IMG/VR virus record: IMGVR_UViG_2651869755_000020
DNA from: a virus
Taxonomy: Duplodnaviria; Heunggongvirae; Uroviricota; Caudoviricetes
Strand: one strand, 5' to 3'
Length of the DNA: 18,083 nt
A program made the position numbers and the translations under genes. Within the stretch, counting starts at the first letter, position 1. The number at the start of each line of letters is the position of its first letter. The notes beneath the pieces were generated by a model. The model searched no databases. It saw only the letters and a list, made by a program, of their open reading frames with translations, and was not told where the DNA came from. Shown here in pieces: positions 3,826 to 18,083 of the stretch.

Positions 3826-5242
3826 CTATCTGCATGGTCCCGAAACCATTGAGGTGGAAAACGGAGCCCGCCCGGTTAAAACGGTGAAATCTGCCGTTAT
3901 TGGCCTGATTGGTACCGCCCCGATGGGGGATGTCAATACGCTGGTACAGTGCCTGTCTGAGAAAGACGCAGCGGCATTTGGCAGCCAGTTCACCGGCTTT
4001 ACCATTCCGCAGGCGCTGGATGCGATTTATGACCATGGTGCAGGCACCGTTCTGGTCATTAACGTCCTCGACCCGGCGAAACATAAAACGGCGATCGAGG
4101 ATGAGGTGGTTACCTTTGACAAATCGACAGGGCAGGCCAGACTGGCGCATCCGGTTGTCGCTAATGTGGTGGTGAAAAACAGTGAAGGCAGCACCACCCA
4201 CACGGCGAACACGGACTACCGTGTTGATGCGCAGGCGGGTGTGCTCACGAACCTGGGCAAGGCTATTGAGGCCGGTGGCAGCGTGAAGGTGAGCTATGAG
4301 TACGCGGACCCGTCGAAGGTGACTGCGGCGGACATCATCGGCGGGGTGAACAGCGCCGGAAACCGAACCGGCATGAAGCTGCTTAACGACAGCTTCAACC
4401 TGTACGGCTATTTCGCCAAAATTCTGATTGCGCCGGTGTTCTGCACCCAGAAGAGTGTCGCAGTTGAGCTTATCGCCATGGCAGAGAAGCTGGGCGCGGT
4501 AACCTACATTGATGCGCCTGTCGGTACCACCTTTGCACAGGCTCTGGCAGGTCGTGGCCCGGAAGGCACCATCAACTTCAATACCAGCTCCGACCGCGTC
4601 CGTCTGTGCTATCCGCATGTGAAGGTATATGACCCGGTGACAAACACAGAGCGTCTGGAGCCGCTCAGCCAGCGTGCAGCAGGTCTGCGTGCCAGAGTCG
4701 ATCTGGACAAGGGCTACTGGTGGTCATCCTCCAATCAGGAGATTCTGGGGATCACCGGCGTGGAGCGCCAGCTGTCCGCGATGATTGATGACCCGCAGAG
4801 TGAGGTGAACCTGCTTAACGAACAGGGGATCACCACGGTATTCAGCAGTTACGGCAGCGGCCTTCGTCTGTGGGGTAACCGGACGGCAGCATGGCCAACG
4901 GTCACCCATATGCGTAACTTTGAGAACGTTCGCCGCACCGGTGATGTGATCAACGAGTCCATTCGTTATTTCAGCCAGCAGTACATCGACATGCCGATTA
5001 CTCAGGCGCTGATTGATGCACTGACGGAGTCGGTCAACGCCTACGGTCGCAAAATGACTGGTGATGGTGCGGTACTGGGCTTCCGTTGCTGGTTTGATCC
5101 GGCCCGCAATCCGGAGACGGAGCTGGCCGCCGGGCACCTGTTGCTGAGCTACAAATATACGCCACCACCGCCGCTGGAGCGACTGACGTTTGAGACTGAG
5201 ATCACCTCGGAATACCTGTTAACCCTGAAAGGGGGCAACTGA
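3815..5242 (+). CDS. contractile tail sheath protein
   Basis: 475-aa ORF with GGAGG RBS at 3803-3807. Size and position (immediately before a roughly 170-aa tube gene) are diagnostic of myovirus sheath proteins. Confidence 0.85.
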   Translation: MAANYLHGPETIEVENGARPVKTVKSAVIGLIGTAPMGDVNTLVQCLSEKDAAAFGSQFTGFTIPQALDAIYDHGAGTVLVINVLDPAKHKTAIEDEVVTFDKSTGQARLAHPVVANVVVKNSEGSTTHTANTDYRVDAQAGVLTNLGKAIEAGGSVKVSYEYADPSKVTAADIIGGVNSAGNRTGMKLLNDSFNLYGYFAKILIAPVFCTQKSVAVELIAMAEKLGAVTYIDAPVGTTFAQALAGRGPEGTINFNTSSDRVRLCYPHVKVYDPVTNTERLEPLSQRAAGLRARVDLDKGYWWSSSNQEILGITGVERQLSAMIDDPQSEVNLLNEQGITTVFSSYGSGLRLWGNRTAAWPTVTHMRNFENVRRTGDVINESIRYFSQQYIDMPITQALIDALTESVNAYGRKMTGDGAVLGFRCWFDPARNPETELAAGHLLLSYKYTPPPPLERLTFETEITSEYLLTLKGGN

Positions 5243-5763
5243 TGTCAAAGATTGAGATAAACCGCATCACGAATGCCAACATCTATCTGGATGGTACTAA
5301 CCTGCTGGGACGGGCTGAGGAAGTCAAACTCCCCGATGTCTCCATGATTATGCAGGAACACAAGGCGCTGGGGATGGTGGGTAAGGTGGAACTCCCGGCT
5401 GGTTTTGACAAGCTGGAAGGCGAAATCAAATGGAACAGCTTTTACCGCGATGCGATGCTGTCTGCCGCGAACCCGTACAGGTCGCTGGCACTGCAGTGTC
5501 GTTCCAGCGTCCAGCGCTACAGCTCGCAGGGGCTGATTGACGAAATCCCGCTGGTCACCTTCCTGACGATTATGTTCAAGAAGAACCCGCTGGGGACGTT
5601 CAAACAGCACGAGAACGCCGAGTTCTCCAGTAGCTTCACCTGCACGTATATCAGACAGGTACTGGATGGTGAAGAGCTGCTGCAACTGGACTATCTGGCC
5701 AACATCTTCCGGGTCGGCGGTGTTGATCAACTGACTGACTACCGTATCAATATCGGGGGCTGA
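5242..5763 (+). CDS. tail tube protein
   Basis: 173-aa ORF whose start overlaps the sheath stop. Classic sheath-tube gene pair. Confidence 0.8.
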   Translation: MSKIEINRITNANIYLDGTNLLGRAEEVKLPDVSMIMQEHKALGMVGKVELPAGFDKLEGEIKWNSFYRDAMLSAANPYRSLALQCRSSVQRYSSQGLIDEIPLVTFLTIMFKKNPLGTFKQHENAEFSSSFTCTYIRQVLDGEELLQLDYLANIFRVGGVDQLTDYRINIGG

Positions 5764-5765
5764 CG

Positions 5766-6047
5766 GTGAGTGTTGAACTGACGGATAAAGGAGGACGATG
5801 TGCGGCACTGGGCATGTCAAATGGTACGTGGTTTACCCTCCTTGATATTCCGGGGGTGGAAACCCTTTTTAATACCCGTAAAACCAATGACCCGATTGAC
5901 TGCACACGTTCAAAGGCCCGCAAACTGGCGGATTTGATTGAAGCATGGGAGCCTCCCGACCACTGGTTCTCCGGCATCGGCAAATCTGAGGGAAAGACGC
6001 TTCTCATCGCTTTCCTGCGTAACTGCAAGGGGTTTCGCACTTGCTGA
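5766..6047 (+). CDS. small hypothetical protein (about 77-93 aa, four Cys); possible accessory (moron-like) gene between tube and chaperone
   Basis: ORF in operon orientation starting at GTG 5766 or in-frame ATG 5814 (AAGGAGGA at 5787-5794). Followed by a hairpin terminator candidate. No family recognised. A 97-aa ORF on the opposite strand covers the same DNA, so the coding strand is not certain. Confidence 0.35.
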   Translation: MSVELTDKGGRCAALGMSNGTWFTLLDIPGVETLFNTRKTNDPIDCTRSKARKLADLIEAWEPPDHWFSGIGKSEGKTLLIAFLRNCKGFRTC

Positions 6048-6053
6048 CATCAC

Positions 6054-6080
6054 AGGGGCTCCGGCCCCTTCTTCTTAATC
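6054..6080 (+). terminator. candidate intrinsic terminator (GC-rich hairpin AGGGGC-TCCG-GCCCCT followed by TTCTTCTT)
   Basis: Perfect 5-6 bp G/C stem at 6054-6069 followed by a T-rich run interrupted by C, directly after the small ORF stop at 6047. Confidence 0.4.
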
Positions 6081-6144
6081 TCCTTTAATATCCGTCACGC
6101 GCTTCTCCCGACATACTGCCCTGAACTTACACAGGAGCACAATC

Positions 6145-6480
6145 ATGTCACAGACCCCATCCGATACTTTTAAATTGTCTTATCCCTTCACCACTGCTGC
6201 AGGCACCAGAATTGAGCTGGTTGAACTGAAACGCCTGACGGTAAAAGACCTGAAGCAGGTGCGCAAAATCAGCAAAAACCCGGCAGACTGGGACGAACCG
6301 CTGATTGCCCGCAGTACTGGTCTTCTCCCGGAAGATCTCGACAATATGGATCTGGCTGATTACCTGCAGTTACAGAAACGATTTCAGCTCATCACGGGGA
6401 TGGGTGAGAGCAACCAGGGCGCTGACGCAGGCGCAGGGGCTGCTGGCGAGATGGTTCCGGTTTCAGCCGGGGGAGATTGA
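6145..6480 (+). CDS. tail assembly chaperone (position equivalent to lambda G / P2 E / Mu gp41)
   Basis: 111-aa ORF with AGGAG RBS 8 nt upstream, located between the tube and tape measure genes. Acidic protein, as expected for tape-measure chaperones. Confidence 0.6.
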   Translation: MSQTPSDTFKLSYPFTTAAGTRIELVELKRLTVKDLKQVRKISKNPADWDEPLIARSTGLLPEDLDNMDLADYLQLQKRFQLITGMGESNQGADAGAGAAGEMVPVSAGGD

Positions 6481-6562
6481 TGCCCTCGATACTGACGATC
6501 TGGAGATGTGGCTGGAGCAGGCTGAAGAGCAAATCAAAAGCGAGTACGGCGACAAATCATAG
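6305..6562 (+). CDS. overlapping second frame; candidate frameshift extension of the tail assembly chaperone
   Basis: Open frame overlapping 6305-6480 in the +1 frame relative to the chaperone and continuing 27 codons beyond its stop (...RFQPGEIDALDTDDLEMWLEQAEEQIKSEYGDKS). Protein-like acidic tail. Position matches the conserved chaperone frameshift of tailed phages. Confidence 0.35.
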   Translation: MPAVLVFSRKISTIWIWLITCSYRNDFSSSRGWVRATRALTQAQGLLARWFRFQPGEIDALDTDDLEMWLEQAEEQIKSEYGDKS

Positions 6563-6637
6563 TACAGACAGCCGCCAGTAGCGGCTGTTCTGCGTTATCC
6601 CCTCACGTCTTTTCACCTTCCCCGGAGGTTAACCACT

Positions 6638-9600
6638 ATGTCGGGACAGTTTTCAGTCGGCGTTGTTATCGGCGGGATGATTGGCAGCACATTCCGTTCT
6701 GCAATGAGCGGTACCCGCCGTGCGCTTGATTCCCTGAGCGATACCTCACGCCGCCTGCAGGAACGTCAGAACGCTTTAACCCGTGCAACAGAACGTTATG
6801 GTCAACTGGGTTCTTCCCGGATGCAGCATCTCAACAGCGAGCTGCTGCGGGTAAGCCGCACCATGGAGCAAATTGAGCGCCAGCAGCGCCGTCTGTCAGC
6901 GGCATCCGCTACCAGTGATGCGCTGAAAGCTAACCGCATGGCGCTGTATGGTCAGGGGATTGAAGCGTATGGCATGGCACAGACTGTTTATCATACGGTT
7001 TCCCCTGCCGTTCAGCAGTCCATGTCTTTTCAGGACAAAATGATTGATATGTCGATCACCGCAAAATATGACAATAAAACGCGGGATGCACTTGCCGGAC
7101 AGATAAAAGGCTGGGCGCTTAAATACAATCAGTATCAGGATGAGCTGCAGGAGGCGGTGGGTTCACTCATCAGCGACAATATTGATAATGTGTCAGATAT
7201 CGGTTTTCTGATGCCGGATATTGCCCGCGCGGCAACGGCAACACGCACGTCTGCTCAGGACTGGGCAAAAGTGGCCGCAGTCTGGCAAAACTCCCTGAAA
7301 GGTGCGGCCAGAGATTTTGGTGCCGTTCAGAATATTATGGCTTATGCCGGTGACCAGGGGTCATTTGAAATCCCGGATCAGGTCAAGTGGATGCAGTCCC
7401 TGGCCCCAATGATGGCGGGTCTTGCCAGTGGAAAAGAGGCTGTTGCTGAAATCGGGGCCAGTCTCCAGATAGCAAAAATCGGTGCAGGTTCCACCGACGA
7501 AGCAGCCAATAATTTTAAAAACTTTCTTACCAAAATTTTTGCCCGCGATACTCAGAAACAGTTTGCTGATCTGGGTATTGATTTGCAGGGATCTATTGCG
7601 AGTTATAAAGCTGCGGGGATCTCTCCGATTGAAGGGATGTTGAGTGTTATAGAACGTTACCTCAATGCCAAAAGCCCCGAAGCGCTGGCCGGCTTCAAAT
7701 CAGCCATGAAAATAAAGAATGATACGGCAAGAGATGAGGCACTTCAGGCTCTGGCGAAAAACTTTGGTCTGGGCGATATGTTCGCGGATATGCAGGTCAT
7801 GGCATTTATCCGCCCGATGCTGGCCAACATGGACAGATATCGAGAGATCCGTGCCGGTGCTCTCAGGGCTGCGGATAACGATTTGCTTGCCAGTGCTTAT
7901 GATCAGCGGCTGAAATCTCCCCTTGAAGCCACTAAAACACTTATGGTCAGCAGTCGCGATCTGGCAATTACGCTGGGCGATCAATTAGCTCCATCTTTTA
8001 TTTCTCTGACTCAGGAACTGCTCCCACTCATTCAGGGGACAAAACACTGGGTAGCGACTCACCCGCAATTTGTCAGTGGGGCTTTTAAGCTCATCAGTGC
8101 GCTCCTTGCGATTAAGATAGCGACTATTGGTCTCAAACTGGGGCTGAATCTCCTTATTTCCCCCTTTGTGAACGTCTGGAAAACTACTGTTTTACTCCGG
8201 ACCAACTGGCATCGACTGACTACCGCACTCGGAGAAGGTGGCAAATTACGCTGGCTTGTCACTGGATTCAGCCGACTGACCAGCGGAGGACTGAAACTCA
8301 GCAAAGTTCTGGCGGGCAGCCTCGTTCGCGGTTTTATGAGCGCTGCACGTGCCGTTCTCTGGATTGGGCGAGCGCTGATGATGAATCCCATCGGTCTCGT
8401 TATCACCGCTGTCGCGACAGCAGCTTACCTTATCTACCGCAACTGGGGGGCTGTCAGTGGTTGGTTTAAACAGCGCTGGGCTGACATTCAGGAAGCCTTT
8501 AACGGCGGCATTGTGGGAATTGGTAAGTTGCTGATTAACTGGTCGCCGGCAGGCCTGCTCTATAAAGCCTTTGCGGCTGCGCTGAAATATTTCGGCGTTG
8601 CTCTGCCGGCAAAGTTCACCGACTTCGGTGGCCATCTTATCGACGGTCTGATTAACGGTATCAAAAGCAAATGGGGGTCGCTCAAATCCAGTGTAACCGG
8701 AATGGGTGACAGCATCAGTAGCTGGTTTAAACAGCGCTGGGCTGACATTCAGGAAGCCTTTAACGGCGGCATTGTGGGAATTGGTAAGTTGCTGATTAAC
8801 TGGTCGCCGGCAGGCCTGCTCTATAAAGCCTTTGCGGCTGCGCTGAAATATTTCGGCGTTGCTCTGCCGGCAAAGTTCACCGACTTCGGTGGCCATCTTA
8901 TCGACGGTCTGATTAACGGTATCAAAAACAAATGGGGGTCGCTCAAATCCAGTGTAACCGGAATGGGTGACAGCATCAGTAGCTGGTTTAAACAGTGCTG
9001 GGCTGACATTCAGGAAGCCTTTAACGGCGGTATCGCGGGAACTGGTAAGCTGCTGATTAACTGGTCGCCGGCAGGTCTGCTCTATAAAGCCTTTGCAGCT
9101 GCGCTGAAATATCTTGGTGTTGATCTGCCGGCAAAGTTCACCGACTTCGGTGGCCATCTTGTCGACGGTCTGATTAACGGTATCAAAAACAAATGGGAGT
9201 CGCTCAAATCCAGTGTAACCGGAATGGGTGACAGCATCAGTGGCTGGTTCAGCGAAAAGCTGGGCATTCATTCGCCGAGCCGCGTGTTTATGGGCTTTGG
9301 TGACAATATCGCGCAGGGGGCCGCCATTGGCCTGCAGCGGACCACTCCGCTTGCAGCTCTGGCCGGGCAGCGAATGGCCAGTGAACTGCTCCCCAGAATG
9401 CCCGTGAGCATTCAGGGGCCAGAAATACGGGATAACACTTCAGGTGTTCGCTTCAGTATGCCGTTGCCCGATATCAATGGGTTTATGTCGTCTGCTAAAA
9501 ATGCGATCGGAGCCGTAATCAATAGTTTGTCTTCCATGCCCGTTATTCCGCTCTCCACCCGGGCATCGATTTTACCAGGGCAACGTCTGGCAAATGAGAT

Positions 9601-9850
9601 GACACCGGATGTTCCCCGTATCCCCTCGCCTGAAATCCTGGCTGCCGGATATTCAGGCCGTGGTGCAGCTGCAACCGGCGGTGGAACGTCTGGTGGTATC
9701 CAGGTCAGCTTTAATCCTCAGTTTTTCCTCAATGGCAGGGAAACCACAGCGCCTGCAGGACTGACTGGTGCCCTGAATATGAGTCTGCATGAGCTGGAAA
9801 AAATGCTGGAGCGTCTGCTGGCTCAGAAACAACGTAAGGAGTACCGCTGA
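6638..9850 (+). CDS. tail tape measure protein
   Basis: 1070-aa ORF with GGAGG RBS, the largest gene, directly downstream of the chaperone pair. Has a long helical N-terminal half and internal tandem repeats. Start of the downstream gene overlaps its stop. Confidence 0.9.
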   Translation: MSGQFSVGVVIGGMIGSTFRSAMSGTRRALDSLSDTSRRLQERQNALTRATERYGQLGSSRMQHLNSELLRVSRTMEQIERQQRRLSAASATSDALKANRMALYGQGIEAYGMAQTVYHTVSPAVQQSMSFQDKMIDMSITAKYDNKTRDALAGQIKGWALKYNQYQDELQEAVGSLISDNIDNVSDIGFLMPDIARAATATRTSAQDWAKVAAVWQNSLKGAARDFGAVQNIMAYAGDQGSFEIPDQVKWMQSLAPMMAGLASGKEAVAEIGASLQIAKIGAGSTDEAANNFKNFLTKIFARDTQKQFADLGIDLQGSIASYKAAGISPIEGMLSVIERYLNAKSPEALAGFKSAMKIKNDTARDEALQALAKNFGLGDMFADMQVMAFIRPMLANMDRYREIRAGALRAADNDLLASAYDQRLKSPLEATKTLMVSSRDLAITLGDQLAPSFISLTQELLPLIQGTKHWVATHPQFVSGAFKLISALLAIKIATIGLKLGLNLLISPFVNVWKTTVLLRTNWHRLTTALGEGGKLRWLVTGFSRLTSGGLKLSKVLAGSLVRGFMSAARAVLWIGRALMMNPIGLVITAVATAAYLIYRNWGAVSGWFKQRWADIQEAFNGGIVGIGKLLINWSPAGLLYKAFAAALKYFGVALPAKFTDFGGHLIDGLINGIKSKWGSLKSSVTGMGDSISSWFKQRWADIQEAFNGGIVGIGKLLINWSPAGLLYKAFAAALKYFGVALPAKFTDFGGHLIDGLINGIKNKWGSLKSSVTGMGDSISSWFKQCWADIQEAFNGGIAGTGKLLINWSPAGLLYKAFAAALKYLGVDLPAKFTDFGGHLVDGLINGIKNKWESLKSSVTGMGDSISGWFSEKLGIHSPSRVFMGFGDNIAQGAAIGLQRTTPLAALAGQRMASELLPRMPVSIQGPEIRDNTSGVRFSMPLPDINGFMSSAKNAIGAVINSLSSMPVIPLSTRASILPGQRLANEMTPDVPRIPSPEILAAGYSGRGAAATGGGTSGGIQVSFNPQFFLNGRETTAPAGLTGALNMSLHELEKMLERLLAQKQRKEYR
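8462..9244 (+). repeat. three tandem 261-bp (87-codon) in-frame repeats inside the tape measure gene
   Basis: Unit begins TGGTTTAAACAGCGCTGGGCTGACATTCAGGAAGCC at 8462, 8723 and 8984. Copies 1 and 2 differ at a single base (AAAAGC vs AAAAAC). Copy 3 carries about a dozen substitutions. Confidence 0.9.
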
Positions 9851-12753: not shown

Positions 12754-13101
12754 ATGAAAACAACCTCAGTATTCTGGCAACCGACCCTGCAGGCTCCCGG
12801 CGAAATTGTCCGGGGGCTGGATGATATCCGGCAGGCGATTCAAATTATCCTGCGGACTCCCCGCGGCAGCGACCCGCATCGCCCGGAGTTCGGCAGCAAT
12901 CTGCATCTTTATATCGACTGGCCTGTAGACCGGGCCATTCCGCATGTGGTGCGCGAATCCGTCGATGCCATCCGACGCTGGGAGCCCCGCTGCCAGCTTA
13001 TGTCAGTTAAACCCGCCGTCGACGGCGAACATCTTACGCTCCGGGTGAGCTGGAAAGGCTCAGACGGACAGACCCGGACTCAGGAGTTGCTATGGCGCTG
13101 A
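12754..13101 (+). CDS. baseplate wedge protein, gpW / T4 gp25-like
   Basis: 115-aa ORF. Size and position between the spike and the J-like gene are typical of gp25/W lysozyme-fold baseplate proteins. Downstream gene overlaps its 3' end. Confidence 0.7.
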   Translation: MKTTSVFWQPTLQAPGEIVRGLDDIRQAIQIILRTPRGSDPHRPEFGSNLHLYIDWPVDRAIPHVVRESVDAIRRWEPRCQLMSVKPAVDGEHLTLRVSWKGSDGQTRTQELLWR

Positions 13102-14195
13102 CAGAACCCGATTTTATTGAACGCGATGCCGACAAAATCACGGCAGAAATGATTGCGAAGTATGAAGCGGATACCGGCAAAACGCTGTACCCGGCACAGG
13201 CAGAACGTCTGCTGATTGATCTGTGGGCCTATCGCGAAATGCTGGTCAGGGTTGCGGTACAGGAGGCAGCAAAGCAGAATCTGGTCGCCTTTTCACGAGA
13301 GCCGATGATTGATTACCTCGGAGAACTGGTTGGTGTATACCGCCTTGCCGCGCAGCCTGCCACCACCACACTTCAGTTCTCTGTGGATGAGGCACTGACC
13401 ATTGATGTGCTGATCCCGGCAGGCACCCGCGTCAGCGCTTCCGACAGCGTTATTTTTGCCACCGATACAGATGTGGTACTGAAGGCCGGATTGCTGCTGG
13501 TCAATGTCACGTCCACCTGTACCGAACCCGGTACCGCTGGTAACGGCTGGCAACCTGCGCAGGTCAGTCAGTTACTCGATGAGATTGATAACGTCGACCT
13601 GCTGGTGAGCAATCTGACGGCCAGTTCCGGCGGTTCAGAACAGGAAGACGATGACAGGCTCCGGGAGCGTATCAGGCTGGCCCCGGAGTCATTCACCAAT
13701 GCCGGAAGCCGTGGCGCATACCGCTTTCATGCCATGCAGGCCCATCCCAACATTGTCGATGTTGCTGTGCTTTCCCCGGTTCCCGGGACCGTAGATCTGT
13801 ATCCGCTGCTCAGTACCGGTCTGCCGGACGGCGGTGTTCTCACGCTGGTAGAGAGTTTCTGCTCTGATGAGAAAGTCAGGCCACTCACTGATACAGTGCG
13901 GGCTAAAACACCAGTGAAGGTGGATTACACCATTGAAGCCAGGATTACGATCTATCGTGATCAGGATGCCAGGTCTGTAAAAGATGCCGCTAACAGCGCC
14001 ATACAGAACTGGGTGGCATCACGTGCCGCCACGCTGGGGCGTGATATTGTCCCCAGCCAGATTATCAGTGCATTGTCCGTTTCCGGGGTGTACCAGGTTG
14101 AACTGGTGACACCGGCACTGAGGGTGGTGGCAGAAAACGAATGGGCAAACTGTACGGCGATCACACTTAACATGAGTGGAGTGTCTGATGACTGA
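13092..14195 (+). CDS. baseplate protein J-like (Mu gp47 position)
   Basis: 367-aa ORF with AGGAG RBS, overlapping the upstream and downstream genes. Size and position are typical of Baseplate_J family proteins. Confidence 0.75.
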   Translation: MALTEPDFIERDADKITAEMIAKYEADTGKTLYPAQAERLLIDLWAYREMLVRVAVQEAAKQNLVAFSREPMIDYLGELVGVYRLAAQPATTTLQFSVDEALTIDVLIPAGTRVSASDSVIFATDTDVVLKAGLLLVNVTSTCTEPGTAGNGWQPAQVSQLLDEIDNVDLLVSNLTASSGGSEQEDDDRLRERIRLAPESFTNAGSRGAYRFHAMQAHPNIVDVAVLSPVPGTVDLYPLLSTGLPDGGVLTLVESFCSDEKVRPLTDTVRAKTPVKVDYTIEARITIYRDQDARSVKDAANSAIQNWVASRAATLGRDIVPSQIISALSVSGVYQVELVTPALRVVAENEWANCTAITLNMSGVSDD

Positions 14196-14766
14196 GCCAT
14201 TACAACTCCCGCCACCGCTTGAGGGTGATATCAGTCTCAGGACGCTGGGAAGACTGGCAGGGCGGCTGGATAACATCGACCTGAGCGTACTGATGGTCTT
14301 TCTCGTCGATATCGTCGACAGTTCTGCGCTGCCATGGCTGGGCGAGCAGTTCTCACTGTCTGGCGATGGCTGGGAGCTGGCGGAATCGGACGATGTTCGC
14401 CGCATGCTTATAAAAGCAGCCATCGAACTACACCGGTATAAAGGGACGCCGTGGTCAATCCGGGAAGTTATCCGCCGTTTTGGCTTTGGTGAAGTGGATC
14501 TGATTGAAGGCACAGGTCGTCTCAGTTACGACGGCAATCGCAGCTATAACGGACTGTTTGTTCATGGAGATGCAGCCGCCTGGGCGGTTTATCGCGTTAT
14601 TCTGAAACAGCCCATTACTAACGATCAGGCCGCGATGCTGCGTCAGACGCTCGCTGCATTTGCACCGGCCCGCTGCCATCTGGCCAGCCTGGAGTATCAG
14701 TCTGTGGCCATTCGCTATAACAATACCGCCATCCATGATGGCAGTTATAACCACGGGAGCAGTTGA
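14188..14766 (+). CDS. baseplate/tail protein I-like (Mu gp48 position)
   Basis: ATG at 14188 (MTEPLQLPPPLEGD...) is in frame with the track ORF that begins at GTG 14176. It overlaps the upstream stop by 8 nt. 192 aa, immediately before the tail fiber gene as in P2 (I-H) and Mu (R-S). Confidence 0.65.
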   Translation: MTEPLQLPPPLEGDISLRTLGRLAGRLDNIDLSVLMVFLVDIVDSSALPWLGEQFSLSGDGWELAESDDVRRMLIKAAIELHRYKGTPWSIREVIRRFGFGEVDLIEGTGRLSYDGNRSYNGLFVHGDAAAWAVYRVILKQPITNDQAAMLRQTLAAFAPARCHLASLEYQSVAIRYNNTAIHDGSYNHGSS

Positions 14767-14768
14767 TT

Positions 14769-16391
14769 ATGGGAAACCTGAATGAAACAGAAAAGTGGGA
14801 AGAAAAAATCTATCAACTGGAGACATCAGATCCGGTTCTGGGTGGTGCTGACGGGATATCAAATCGAGCCCCCCGGCAACTGGCAAACAGGACGAAATGG
14901 CTGAAGAAAAAAACGGAGGAAGCCGCACAGTCACTGGCTGAACACGTACGTTCCCGTAACCACCCGGACGCGACACTGACAGCTAAGGGGTTCACCCAAC
15001 TGAGCAGTGCCACCAACAGCACCTCTGAAACGCTGGCCGCCACACCAAAAGCCGTCAAGGCTGCATACGACCTTGCAGCCGGCAAGGCACCCGTCAGTCA
15101 CACTCACCCGTGGAGTCAGATAACGGGAGTGCCTGCTGCCTCGCTGACGGCAAAAGGCACCGTACAGCTGAGCAGTGCCACGGACAGTCAATCAGAAACT
15201 GAGGCTGCCACGCCGAAGGCTGTGAAAATCGCGTATGATCTGGCCCGGGGAAAATACACAGCCCAGGATGCAACAACGACCCGTAAAGGGATCGTACAAC
15301 TGAGCAGTGCCACCAACAGCACCTCTGAAACGCTGGCCGCCACACCAAAGGCCGTCAAGGCTGCATATGACCTGGCTGCCGGCAAGGCCCCCGTCAGCCA
15401 CACTCACCCGTGGAGTCAGATAACGGGAGTGCCTGCTGCCTCGCTGACGGCAAAAGGCACCGTACAACTGAGCAGCGCCACGGACAGTCAATCAGAAACT
15501 GAGGCTGCCACGCCGAAGGCGGTCAAGGCTGCATACGACCTTGCAGCCGGCAAGGCGCCCGTCAGCCACACTCACCCGTGGAGTCAGATAACGGGAGTGC
15601 CTGCTGCCTCGCTGACGGCAAAAGGCACCATACAATTGAGCAGTGCCATCAACAGCACGTCTGAAATACTGGCCGCCACACCGAAAGCGGTCAAGGCTGC
15701 ATACGATCTGGCAAACGGAAAACAACCGGCAGATGCCACGCTCACTGCTCTGGCAGGACTTGCCACTGCAGCAGATCGGTTGCCTTATTTTACCGGAGCA
15801 GACCGCGCAGCGCTGGCAACCCTTACAGCTATTGGTCGCGCTATTATCGCTAAGGGCAGTATAAAAGATGTCCTCAATTACCTTGGTTTGGGGGAAGGCT
15901 CTGCACTGCCTGTTGGTGTGCCTGTTCCATGGCCCACCGCCACACCGCCAGCAGGCTGGTTAAAGTGCGACGGGCGCGCCTTTACAAAAGAACAATATCC
16001 TGTTCTGGCCAGAGTCTACCCGACCCTCCGTCTTCCCGATTTGCGCGGTGAGTTTATCCGTGGATGGGACGACGGGCGCAAAGTTGATACGGGGCGTTCA
16101 TTGCTAAGTGGTCAGGCTGCAACATTTATTCGTACAGCTTTGCAGGATTATTACGGTTACGATCTGAATACTAATGTCAAAGTAGGTATCGCTTTTGCTA
16201 CTGCTGATTCTGTTATAACCGTTGGAAACCCAGCTAATCCTAAAGCAGGAAAAAATAGCGATTATGTTCCTGCATCAGCAGATAACTCTATAACGGGTAT
16301 TCAAAGGACAGCGGAGGATAATTTTACCGGGGCATGGATATCAATGCGCCCCCGCAATGTTGCGTTTAATTACATCGTAAGGGCCGCATAA
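14769..16391 (+). CDS. tail fiber protein with internal phage-fiber repeats and a C-terminal collar-type receptor-binding domain
   Basis: 540-aa ORF from ATG 14769 (GGGAG RBS about 10 nt upstream; the track starts at TTG 14763). Five copies of the motif LTAKG-x-QLSSAT-x-S-x-SET-x-AATPKAVK-x-AYDLA, typical of lambda Stf / Mu S / P2 H fibers. C-terminal region (PWPTATPPAGWLKCDGRAF...LPDLRGEFIRGWDDGR) resembles the phage tail collar domain. Confidence 0.85.
   Translation: MGNLNETEKWEEKIYQLETSDPVLGGADGISNRAPRQLANRTKWLKKKTEEAAQSLAEHVRSRNHPDATLTAKGFTQLSSATNSTSETLAATPKAVKAAYDLAAGKAPVSHTHPWSQITGVPAASLTAKGTVQLSSATDSQSETEAATPKAVKIAYDLARGKYTAQDATTTRKGIVQLSSATNSTSETLAATPKAVKAAYDLAAGKAPVSHTHPWSQITGVPAASLTAKGTVQLSSATDSQSETEAATPKAVKAAYDLAAGKAPVSHTHPWSQITGVPAASLTAKGTIQLSSAINSTSEILAATPKAVKAAYDLANGKQPADATLTALAGLATAADRLPYFTGADRAALATLTAIGRAIIAKGSIKDVLNYLGLGEGSALPVGVPVPWPTATPPAGWLKCDGRAFTKEQYPVLARVYPTLRLPDLRGEFIRGWDDGRKVDTGRSLLSGQAATFIRTALQDYYGYDLNTNVKVGIAFATADSVITVGNPANPKAGKNSDYVPASADNSITGIQRTAEDNFTGAWISMRPRNVAFNYIVRAA
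14976..15720 (+). repeat. in-frame direct repeats inside the tail fiber gene (five fiber-repeat units; two about 220-bp stretches nearly identical)
   Basis: Units start near 14976, 15144, 15281, 15445 and 15613. Stretches beginning CAACTGAGCAGTGCCACCAACAGCACCTCTGAAACG at 14997 and 15298 remain near-identical for about 220 bp. Confidence 0.85.
15881..15922 (+). repeat. left inverted repeat of the invertible cassette; overlaps a hix/gix-like crossover site (about 15871-15896, core TT at 15883-15884)
   Basis: CCTTGGTTTGGGGGAAGGCTCTGCACTGCCTGTTGGTGTGCC. Its reverse complement matches 16416-16457 at 40 of 42 positions. The half-sites around the TT core resemble the 12-2-12 recombination sites of Hin/Gin/Cin/Pin invertases. 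Confidence 0.7.
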
Positions 16392-16415
16392 AAACGTTGG
16401 TTTAGGAGAAGGCTC

Positions 16416-16457
16416 GGCACACCAACAGGCAATGCAGAGCCTTCCCCCAAACCAACG
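16416..16457 (-). repeat. right inverted repeat of the invertible cassette (core AA at 16454-16455), about 65 bp upstream of the invertase start
   Basis: GGCACACCAACAGGCAATGCAGAGCCTTCCCCCAAACCAACG is the reverse complement of the left repeat with 2 mismatches. Placement next to the invertase gene mirrors gixR/gin and hixR/hin. Confidence 0.7.
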
Positions 16458-16521
16458 TTTATCTCTCAAATCCTCCCCACATTATCTCAGTACTTTAACC
16501 ACTCAAAAGGGAGTATTTTTA

Positions 16522-17094
16522 ATGCTGATTGGCTACATACGTGTGTCAACAAATGACCAAAACACAGATTTGCAACGCAATGCATTAATGTGCGCAGGAT
16601 GTGAACAGATTTTTGAGGACAAAATGAGCGGAACCAAGTCGGAACGACCAGGCCTGAAACGCGCTTTAAAGTGCCTTAAAAGAGGGGATACATTGGTGGT
16701 CTGGAAGCTGGATCGGTTGGGTAGAAGAATGAAACACCTCATTGCTCTCACAGAAGAGCTACGCGCAAAAGGTGTCAATTTTCGCAGTCTGACGGATTCA
16801 ATCGATACCAGCACTCCGATGGGAAGGTTCTTTTTTCATATGATGGGTGCACTGGCAGAAATGGAGCGTGAACTGATAGTTGAGCGCACGCTGGCAGGAC
16901 TGGCTGCTGCGCGAGCACAAGGAAGAGTTGGAGGACGTCGCCCGAAACTGACGAAGGAGCAGCATGAGCAGATCGCAAGATTGCTCCAGAAAGGGTATGA
17001 CAGAAAGCGGCTGGCAATTATCTATGATATTGGACTGTCAACGATCTACCGCTACCACCCTGTTGGGACTGTCATAACGCAACCTGAAATGTAA
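16522..17094 (+). CDS. site-specific DNA invertase, serine recombinase of the Gin/Pin/Cin/Hin family
   Basis: 190-aa ORF from ATG 16522 (AAAGGGAG RBS). Begins MLIGYIRVSTNDQNTDLQRNAL..., with GDTLVVWKLDRLGR and the C-terminal HTH, near-identical in pattern to Gin/Pin as recalled. The track start at 16432 adds 30 non-conserved residues and overlaps the inverted repeat, so it is rejected. Confidence 0.9.
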   Translation: MLIGYIRVSTNDQNTDLQRNALMCAGCEQIFEDKMSGTKSERPGLKRALKCLKRGDTLVVWKLDRLGRRMKHLIALTEELRAKGVNFRSLTDSIDTSTPMGRFFFHMMGALAEMERELIVERTLAGLAAARAQGRVGGRRPKLTKEQHEQIARLLQKGYDRKRLAIIYDIGLSTIYRYHPVGTVITQPEM

Positions 17095-17172
17095 TTCTTT
17101 TTCAAATAATGAAACGCCGCGTGGATGCCATTTATCGCACAAGATAGAGTGCATTTATCGCGCGGCGCATCA
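17095..17172 (+). mobile_element. putative right terminus (attR end) of the Mu-like prophage with repeated transposase-binding-like motifs
   Basis: Two copies of GCATTTATCGC (17128-17141 and 17149-17163). Terminal sequence ...TTTATCGCGCGGCGCATCA ends in CA and matches my recollection of the Mu right end (...TTTTTCGTGCGCCGCTTCA) at about 15 of 19 positions. Host prpR coding sequence begins immediately after. Confidence 0.5.
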
Positions 17173-17710
17173 CGTCGGCGGGCATCAGCCTGTTCCGGTA
17201 GATGTACGGGTCATTAGCGCCACTCACTGCAATCTGGAAGAAGATATGCAGCAAGGACGTTTTCGCCGTGATCTGTTTTATCGGCTGAGTATTTTGCGTC
17301 TGCAATTGCCACCACTGCGCGAGCGGGTGGCGGATATTCTTCCGCTGGCGGAAAGCTTTTTGAAAGTGTCTCTGGCGGCGCTCTCCGCCCCATTTTCTGC
17401 TGCATTACGCCAGGGGTTACAGGCAAGTGAAACTGTGCTGCTGCACTACGACTGGCCAAGCAATATTCGTGAACTGCGCAATATGATGGAACGACTGGCG
17501 CTGTTTTTAAGTGTGGAACCGACGCCGGATTTAACGCCGCAGTTTATGCAACTGCTACTGCCGGAACTGGCGCGCGAGTCGGCGAAAACTCCCGCTCCAC
17601 GCTTACTGACACCACAACAGGCACTGGAGAAATTTAATGGCGATAAAACAGCAGCGGCGAATTATTTAGGCATCAGCCGGACGACGTTCTGGCGGCGGCT
17701 GAAAAGCTGA
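17173..17710 (+). pseudogene. prpR: 3' fragment (about 180 codons) of the sigma-54-dependent propionate regulator gene, cut by the prophage insertion
   Basis: The frame translates from about 17173 as ...VGGHQPVPVDVRVISATHCNLEEDMQQGRFRRDLFYRL..., the conserved end of a sigma-54 activator AAA+ domain, then a C-terminal Fis-type HTH (NYLGISRTTFWRRLKS). The same frame upstream of about 17170 is not activator-like. Convergent yahO follows after 97 bp, as in the E. coli yahO-prpR arrangement I recall. Confidence 0.7.
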
Positions 17711-17807: not shown

Positions 17808-18083
17808 TTACTTCTTCTTATAAATATTTGCCGTGCCGTGGATCTTATTGTCAGTTTGACCGGAGGTCAGTACCAACACATCAGCCCCTTTTTCATCCGC
17901 TTTTTTGATCAAATCTTCTTTTGCATCTGCAGTCGACATTTCATTGCTGGTTGAAATATCACCTATTTTTTCATACTGCGATTCAACTTTTTCAAATTCC
18001 GCTTTGGTCATCAATTCAGCGGCATAGACATTGGTAACGGCTAACGCTAACGCACCGACTAACATTTTAGAGATTATTTTCAT
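17808..18083 (-). CDS. yahO: small periplasmic DUF1471 (YdgH/BhsA/McbA-type) protein
   Basis: 91-aa ORF with signal peptide ([21 protein letters not shown]) and the C-terminal motif [26 protein letters not shown] typical of DUF1471 proteins. Matches my recollection of E. coli YahO. Start codon is the last three bases of the window. Confidence 0.85.

Follow-up and report, generated by a model that had tools for sequence, protein, structure and literature searches.

The window, as we call the whole stretch of 18,083 nucleotides analysed here, holds the tail-fibre repeat shaft of a Mu-like (BcepMu-type) prophage as an in-frame array, very probably of the ordinary kind whose length changes by recombination. 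Along the shaft, Phage_fiber_2 units that are 56 or 44 residues long are joined in tandem and in frame, and duplication of a 300-nt period (one 56-aa and one 44-aa unit) is proposed to have produced two 224-nt stretches with eight synonymous differences. Misaligned homologous recombination or replication slippage between the copies would then add or remove whole periods while keeping the reading frame. Both the length of the period, which divides evenly into codons, and the 96–100% identity of its copies would allow gains and losses that leave the frame intact. The predicted outcome is a set of alleles of differing shaft length in which the baseplate-attachment end and the invertible receptor-binding end are unchanged.

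The tail fibre gene and its repeat units

The tail fibre gene occupies positions 14769–16391 on the forward strand and encodes a product of 540 aa, consisting of an N-terminal attachment part, the repeat shaft and an invertible C-terminal collar/receptor-binding part. Pfam searches of this product detected one Collar domain and five Phage_fiber_2 (PF03406) stretches, the latter scoring 307 bits where the cut-off is 22. The five motifs are the same in number as the five fibre-repeat motifs claimed in a preliminary description of this DNA. The product was assigned to tail fibre families by PHROGs, and the gene was 99.9% identical to one annotated as 'phage tail protein' in E. coli KS21. Directly upstream are genes with Pfam matches to Baseplate_J (13092–14195) and Tail_P2_I (14176–14766), and head, sheath, tube and tape-measure genes are found further upstream. 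The gene order at this locus is that of annotated relatives. The gene belongs to the Phage_fiber_2 tail-fibre family and is part of an invertible fibre locus of the Phi2/Mu/P1 type.

Decomposition of the array by nucleotide comparison gave five units, all on the forward strand, with a motif spacing of 56, 44, 56 and 56. The first unit, U1 (14979–15146; 56 aa), is of the A type and comprises a motif core and a tail with SHTHPWSQITGVP, while U2 (15147–15278; 44 aa) is of the B type and has the short tail IAYDLARGKYTAQDATT. A second copy of U1 is found in U3 (15279–15446; 56 aa, A type). The fourth unit, U4' (15447–15614; 56 aa), is a mosaic in which a B-type (U2-type) head is joined to an A-type (U1-type) tail. 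The last unit, U5 (15615–15719), corresponds to the fifth Pfam stretch, carries the most divergent motif and leads into a unique distal shaft. U1 and U3 have a common motif subtype, ATNSTSETLAAT, and U2 and U4' have another, ATDSQSETEAAT. The head of U4' differs from U2 at 5 of 81 nt; over the 87 nt of its tail there are two mismatches to U1 and four to U3. Together U1 and U2 form the 300-nt period, which is present one to four times in relatives.

Near-identical copies within the array

Two stretches of about 220 bp had been described as almost identical, and comparison of the array with itself recovered them as a pair of 224-nt copies. The first copy (14997–15220, forward strand) runs from QLSSA in U1 through the motif core of U2 and the second (15297–15520, forward strand) runs from U3 through the motif core of U4'. 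These copies are identical at 216 of 224 positions (96.4%) with an offset of exactly 300 nt, equal to 100 codons. The repeat array was found independently by TRF and by a repeat finder. The best 150-nt segment had 144 matches, whereas none of 50 codon shuffles of the fibre gene exceeded 69, and chance is therefore excluded as the origin of the pair.

All eight mismatches are at third codon positions and are synonymous, with a pS of 0.16, a dS of about 0.17 and a dN of 0. The copies encode an identical protein and differ only at these eight synonymous sites, a pattern of purifying selection on the repeat protein. In contrast, the motif cores of different subtypes have pS values of 0.6–0.85, with saturation of synonymous sites, and U1 and U2 use different codons at 16 of the 22 positions where their amino acids are identical. 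The Phage_fiber_2 motif thus tolerates near-complete synonymous divergence, and the identity between U1 and U3 and between U2 and U4' is therefore an excess that stems from common descent or homogenisation. This agrees with the earlier statement that the DNA is more conserved than the protein motif requires.

The excess had previously been ascribed to recent duplication or gene conversion. Duplication is retained in the present analysis, but the window's pair is not a very recent one, since its dS is well above the roughly 0–4% divergence among the alleles compared. The eight differences found in the window recur in every lineage 1 allele that was read, and the distinction between U1 and U3 is also kept in lineage 2, at other sites. 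The copy pair is common to two prophage lineages. The truly recent events are the additional periods in longer alleles, with 0–1 nt of difference per 300.

A deleted invertible locus in a Mu-like prophage

The repeats are located wholly in the constant part of the shaft, upstream of a crossover site, s1 (15871–15896, forward strand; TCCTCAATTACCTTGGTTTGGGGGAA), that lies within the fibre gene, where the constant shaft gives way to the variable C-terminus. A second site, s2 (16385–16410, forward strand), is in direct orientation just past the fibre stop codon and heads the next C-terminal cassette in relatives. A third site, s3 (16442–16467, reverse strand), is found beside the invertase gene, so that the locus has 26-bp crossover sites in inverted orientation (s1 on the plus strand and s3 on the minus strand) with s1 inside the fibre gene. 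The adjacent gene encodes a serine DNA invertase of 190 aa when read from the ATG at 16522 (16522–17094, forward strand). The corresponding ORF (16432–17094) contains Pfam Resolvase (172 bits) and HTH_7 domains, and its DNA is a 99–100% match to that for the 'recombinase family protein' WP_000904922.1 of relatives.

A segment of 1555 bp that lies between s2 and s3 in relatives is absent from the window. In an alignment with one relative (L001), positions 15700–16418 of the window matched positions 4932–5650 and positions 16416–17172 then matched positions 7206–7962. The absent segment consists, in relatives, of two alternative C-terminal cassettes and a tail fibre assembly (chaperone) gene. 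These alternative cassettes and the cognate assembly gene were absent from the window and present in L001–L004, L006 and L007. The same s2/s3 deletion junction was found in E. coli LC-1302-2020, giving one complete genome with this deletion. The locus in the window is a deleted derivative of an invertible tail-fibre system. With three crossover sites and three cassettes, the locus of relatives resembles multi-site systems such as Min.

The element is a Mu-like (BcepMu-type) transposable prophage of E. coli. Its right end, ...GCGCATCA, is at position 17172, while its left end and transposase are outside the window. The host genes that follow the right end vary by strain and include phnP, flgA, ompF, gcd and rstA, which is the pattern that a Mu-like transposable prophage should show. 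The insertion in the window interrupts the gene for a sigma-54-interacting regulator beside yahO, which we take to be prpR. A related phage record, PhiKM, is classified as Bcepmuvirus and contains a transposase and Mu-type genes.

Shaft-length alleles in related prophages

Some match to the fibre gene was present in 861 of 5,426 complete E. coli genomes. Fibre genes with the same flanks as that of the window had 3, 5, 6, 7, 9 or 11 motifs. The window shares its five motifs with KS21 and M-17, and the N-terminus and flanks of these alleles are those of the longer ones. Alleles with seven motifs (L003, L004 and L010) had a fibre gene of 1923 nt, exactly 300 nt longer, and N-terminus and flanks as in the window were also found with nine motifs in L007 and with 11 in L006. 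Clusters of the protein showed the spacing (56,44) repeated n times (n=1–4), and also included arrays in which every spacing was 56. The all-56 alleles are expansions of another period, of 336 nt.

A flank-only query, consisting of the unique flanks, was applied to the same 5,426 complete genomes and matched 600 of them at a coverage of at least 80%. An evenly spaced sample included 38 rows in which the query was covered in full, and array lengths were read from these. The most frequent array was of 444 nt, with three motifs (22 of 38 rows), followed by 1044 nt with seven motifs (six rows). Arrays of 744 nt, with five motifs, and of 1116 nt, with seven motifs at all-56 spacing, were each found in 4 of 38 rows, and two different arrays with six motifs, of 912 and 948 nt, were each found in 1 of 38. 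The three-motif allele of L014 is an uninterrupted ORF of 443 aa that automatic annotation has labelled a pseudogene.

An identical right-end junction in the sigma-54 regulator gene beside yahO was found in the window, with five motifs, and in L010 (seven motifs), L011 (five) and L012 (seven). Because the junction is identical, the four prophages most likely descend from one insertion. The motif numbers of these near-identical elements require two or more changes in length. The closest comparison is between the window and L010, whose flanks are identical at 1719 of 1719 and 2468 of 2469 bases and which both have the unique 1555-bp deletion.

This comparison also raises the question of whether the five motifs of the window are genuine. 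The strain may in fact have seven motifs, with two identical 300-nt periods merged by a short-read assembler; the near-identical pair would be real in that case too. We regard such an artefact as possible but doubtful. The window appears to derive from a short-read draft contig, and records of the exact 540-aa protein are limited to two contigs of 20–50 kb. One of these was read and is a 27.6-kb draft in which the fibre gene, resolvase gene, yahO and yahN follow one another as in the window. L010, the nearest complete genome, agrees with the window in insertion, 1555-bp deletion and flanks, yet it has seven motifs. Its second and third periods are identical at 300 of 300 positions, a duplication that an assembly of short reads would easily merge. 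In the draft phage record PhiKM there is a sequencing gap in the repeat-bearing tape-measure gene. However, alleles with five motifs exist in complete chromosomes, namely L011 (FDAARGOS_1249, with the same insertion site), KS21 and M-17, and the 224-nt pair with its eight fixed differences is present in every allele examined.

The composition of individual units points to exchange between copies. U3 of the window is 0 or 1 nt from the interior A units of the alleles with 7, 9 and 11 motifs, and in the long alleles the interior periods are 0–1 nt apart per 300 while U1 retains its own fixed differences. A second lineage, about 4% diverged, includes the seven-motif L009 and its five-motif sister L008. 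Relative to L008, U3 of L009 is a hybrid with a U3 head and a U1 tail, the switch falling between unit positions 68 and 95. In the lineage of the window, U4 of L003 is a hybrid of a U4' head and a U2 tail. Both crossover intervals are within the 224-nt homology.

Concerted evolution by gene conversion alone, in which non-reciprocal patches keep the copies alike and differences in length are rare side events, could also generate mosaic units, and is supported by the tail of U4', which is closer to the U1 tail than to that of the adjacent U3, and by the U1-type tail of U3 in L009. The latter, however, accompanies exactly one extra period, as predicted by a single unequal crossover. In the lineage of the window, U1 and the interior A units hold the same fixed differences in all alleles read, and homogenisation is weak because these differences are fixed across the lineage. 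Length classes are common rather than rare, and the series of whole periods is not accounted for by gene conversion without length change. We therefore consider conversion to be an improbable explanation for the array as a whole, although conversion without length change probably contributes to its mosaicism, for example in the U4' tail nearest to the U1 tail.

Change in length by recombination between periods is the reading that we prefer. Comparison with the fibre genes of related prophages, which had been proposed as a check, showed that arrays differ by whole periods between conserved flanks. The suggestion that in-frame expansion or contraction could use the repeats as its substrate is supported by the range of 3–11 motifs with identical flanks, by the chimeric junction units and by the presence of five and seven motifs at one insertion. 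For the direction of change, the diagnostic sites compared were unit position 95 (G or A) and the 'GT' or 'AC' of U2. At unit position 95 the window has G and KS21 has A, and the seven-motif L003 has both. The ancestral allele may have had five or seven motifs, as both directions fit the diagnostic sites. RecA-type recombination (unequal exchange) or slippage is the inferred enzymology of the process. Its rate is likewise a matter of inference, as is any influence that a longer or shorter shaft would have on adsorption or host range.

Reverse-strand open reading frames

Overlapping the repeats are four reverse-strand ORFs of 84–99 aa whose stop codons reappear at +300 and +168 nt. The preliminary description had attributed many spurious reverse-strand ORFs to the repeat. 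These ORFs are indeed spurious and periodic, but the repeat is not their cause, as there are 48 stop-free reverse stretches of at least 240 nt across the window and the repeat region is only about 1.35-fold enriched. The reverse-strand ORFs reflect window-wide composition and codon usage; the duplication copies them and does not create them.

These frames of 84–99 aa, together with the excess identity itself, are all that favours the extremely improbable explanation that identity is kept for a function of the DNA or RNA, be it the template/variable pair of a diversity-generating retroelement (DGR), an RNA structure or a real reverse-strand gene, whereas differences confined to third positions with a dN of 0 are expected if the forward protein alone is selected. 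A retroelement VR/TR pair was ruled out by the mixed spectrum of the eight mismatches, which show no adenine specificity (A>G, C>T, T>G, A>T, A>C, T>C, G>A and T>C), and by the fact that no reverse transcriptase is annotated in the related PhiKM record. Real reverse-strand genes were ruled out because no difference between the copies changes the forward protein and because the whole window is rich in open reverse frames.

The tape-measure repeat

The tape-measure gene of the window has an in-frame tandem repeat of its own, of 3 x 261 nt at 8454–9249. This 261-nt repeat is present in one, two or three copies in relatives. The length of the tape-measure protein is linked to tail length. A combined flank query gave the following pairs of tape-measure copies and fibre motifs: (2,3), (2,5), (2,6), (2,7), (3,5) and (3,7). 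Strict coupling between the two numbers was absent in this query, in which strain relatedness was uncontrolled.

Significance of shaft-length variation

The fibre-shaft array and, separately, the tape-measure array could be fast length-tuning loci, with whole-period changes even among clonally related lysogens that are selected to match the thickness of host surface layers (O-antigen or capsule). We consider this idea unlikely. If it were true, the prophage would have two ways of varying its host range, the length of these arrays being added to invertase switching of the fibre tip. Fibres with 3 to 11 motifs, alike except in the length of the shaft and borne by prophages that are otherwise nearly identical, provide a natural series for tests of the effect of shaft length on adsorption and host range.

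There are also consequences for the use of genome data. Repeat number in fibre and tape-measure genes is untrustworthy in short-read assemblies, and automatic annotation mislabels intact short fibre alleles as pseudogenes, as in L014. The findings do not challenge the current understanding of tail fibres, and copy-number variation of an in-frame tandem array would surprise no specialist. A search of the accessible literature found no paper on repeat-number variation of the Phage_fiber_2 motif.

Comparison with known systems

The architecture of the repeat shaft is already known from prophage Phi2 of E. coli EC958 (ST131), for which the published account (PMC4134206) describes stable 5' Phage_fiber_2 tandem repeats, an invertible 3' Collar part and an adjacent DNA invertase. 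The window has the same combination of repeat shaft, invertible collar end and invertase, and ST131 genomes hold close relatives of its fibre gene. The left half of s1 matches the 5' crossover site published for Phi2 and the right half matches the 3' site (PMC4134206); the crossover sites of the window are the Phi2 sites with half-sites swapped, as expected for the other inversion state. Unlike Phi2, the window is without the alternative cassettes and the tail fibre assembly gene. The accessible part of the Phi2 paper covers inversion switching and not repeat-number variation (PMC4134206).

The fibre genes of Mu (protein S), P1 and p15B (Min) are the invertible genes of the Gin, Cin and Min systems (Sandmeier 1994, as cited in PMC4134206). 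As in the window, these have a constant N-terminal part with the Phage_fiber_2 motif, and a serine invertase swaps the variable C-terminus. Residues 110–151 of Mu S align to the motif of the window with an E value of 4e-7 (PDB 5yvq and 8ju3), although only one stretch of Mu S was matched in these searches and the window's fibre has five motifs. Fibres of P1-type plasmid prophages are among the homologues, and their motifs are likewise 100 aa apart. P2-type names are given to the annotated baseplate and tail genes of the locus, in contrast to Mu, P1 and Min, and PhiKM is a Bcepmuvirus. A search of PDB sequences with one 100-aa period returned a single motif, that of Mu fibre protein S, and nothing for the SHTH-containing tail segment. 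The H-x-H of the 56-aa units might, by analogy with T4 gp37, bind metal, which we offer as an idea only.

Collagen-like repeats occur in prophage fibres of EHEC (PMC3368898). These and the tape-measure repeats are like the fibre shaft in being in-frame tandem repeats whose copy number alters the length of an elongated tail protein, but the proteins and motifs differ from those of the window's fibre shaft.

Length variation in the fibre and tape-measure genes

The commonest fibre allele carries three Phage_fiber_2 motifs and is represented by positions 4294-5625 of L014, the related prophage locus of E. coli AR_0104 (NZ_CP020116.1). PGAP labels this allele as two pseudogene fragments. This call is probably an annotation artefact derived from comparison with longer repeat alleles, because the allele translates as a single uninterrupted fibre ORF of 443 aa. 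In the window, the tails of the 56-aa fibre units contain SHTHPWSQI (15084-15110, 15384-15410 and 15552-15578), and the H-x-H motif is present in every 56-aa unit and absent from the 44-aa unit. Iron is bound by H-x-H motifs in the gp37 fibre of T4.

The tape-measure gene (6638-9850) contains an in-frame tandem array at 8454-9249 with three copies of a 261-nt (87 aa) unit, which differ pairwise by 3, 14 and 17 nt. Complete E. coli genomes have one, two or three copies at this locus, two being the commonest, and the tape measure is therefore also length-polymorphic. No strict co-variation was seen between tape-measure copy number and fibre motif number. The record of the related phage PhiKM has a sequencing gap inside its tape-measure gene.

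Prophage right end and insertion site

The right end of the prophage lies at 17172/17173, with the terminal sequence ...GCGCATCA. In the host DNA beyond it (17246-17710 and 17808-18083), insertion has disrupted a gene for a sigma-54-interacting regulator that adjoins yahO, and nothing of the regulator remains except its C-terminal portion with the AAA-lid and HTH_8. This exact junction with the regulator gene is common to three complete genomes. Related prophages have a wide variety of host genes as neighbours, the pattern that Mu-like transposition predicts.

Deletion and layout of the invertible segment

Nearly all of the tail-fibre invertible segment is gone from the window (region 16385-16467, junction 16416-16418), and crossover sites s2 and s3 stand back to back as a near-palindrome. 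Comparison with relatives showed that the window lacks 1555 bp, equivalent to positions 5651-7205 of the related locus L001, a stretch in which relatives have a pair of alternative C-terminal cassettes as well as the gene for tail fibre assembly (chaperone). An identical junction occurs in a complete genome, that of E. coli LC-1302-2020, and the deletion is therefore not confined to the assembly of the window. The invertase gene (16522-17094) and all three crossover sites are retained despite the deletion. No chaperone gene is left for the fibre of the window, a loss that may render the prophage defective.

The fibre-to-recombinase interval of relatives (L001, L002 and L003) contains three C-terminal cassettes and a single assembly gene, with two direct crossover sites and one inverted site. 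Both orientations of the s2-s3 segment occur, differing between genomes. With this layout of cassettes and sites, the interval looks more like a small multi-site shufflon than like a switch with just two states.
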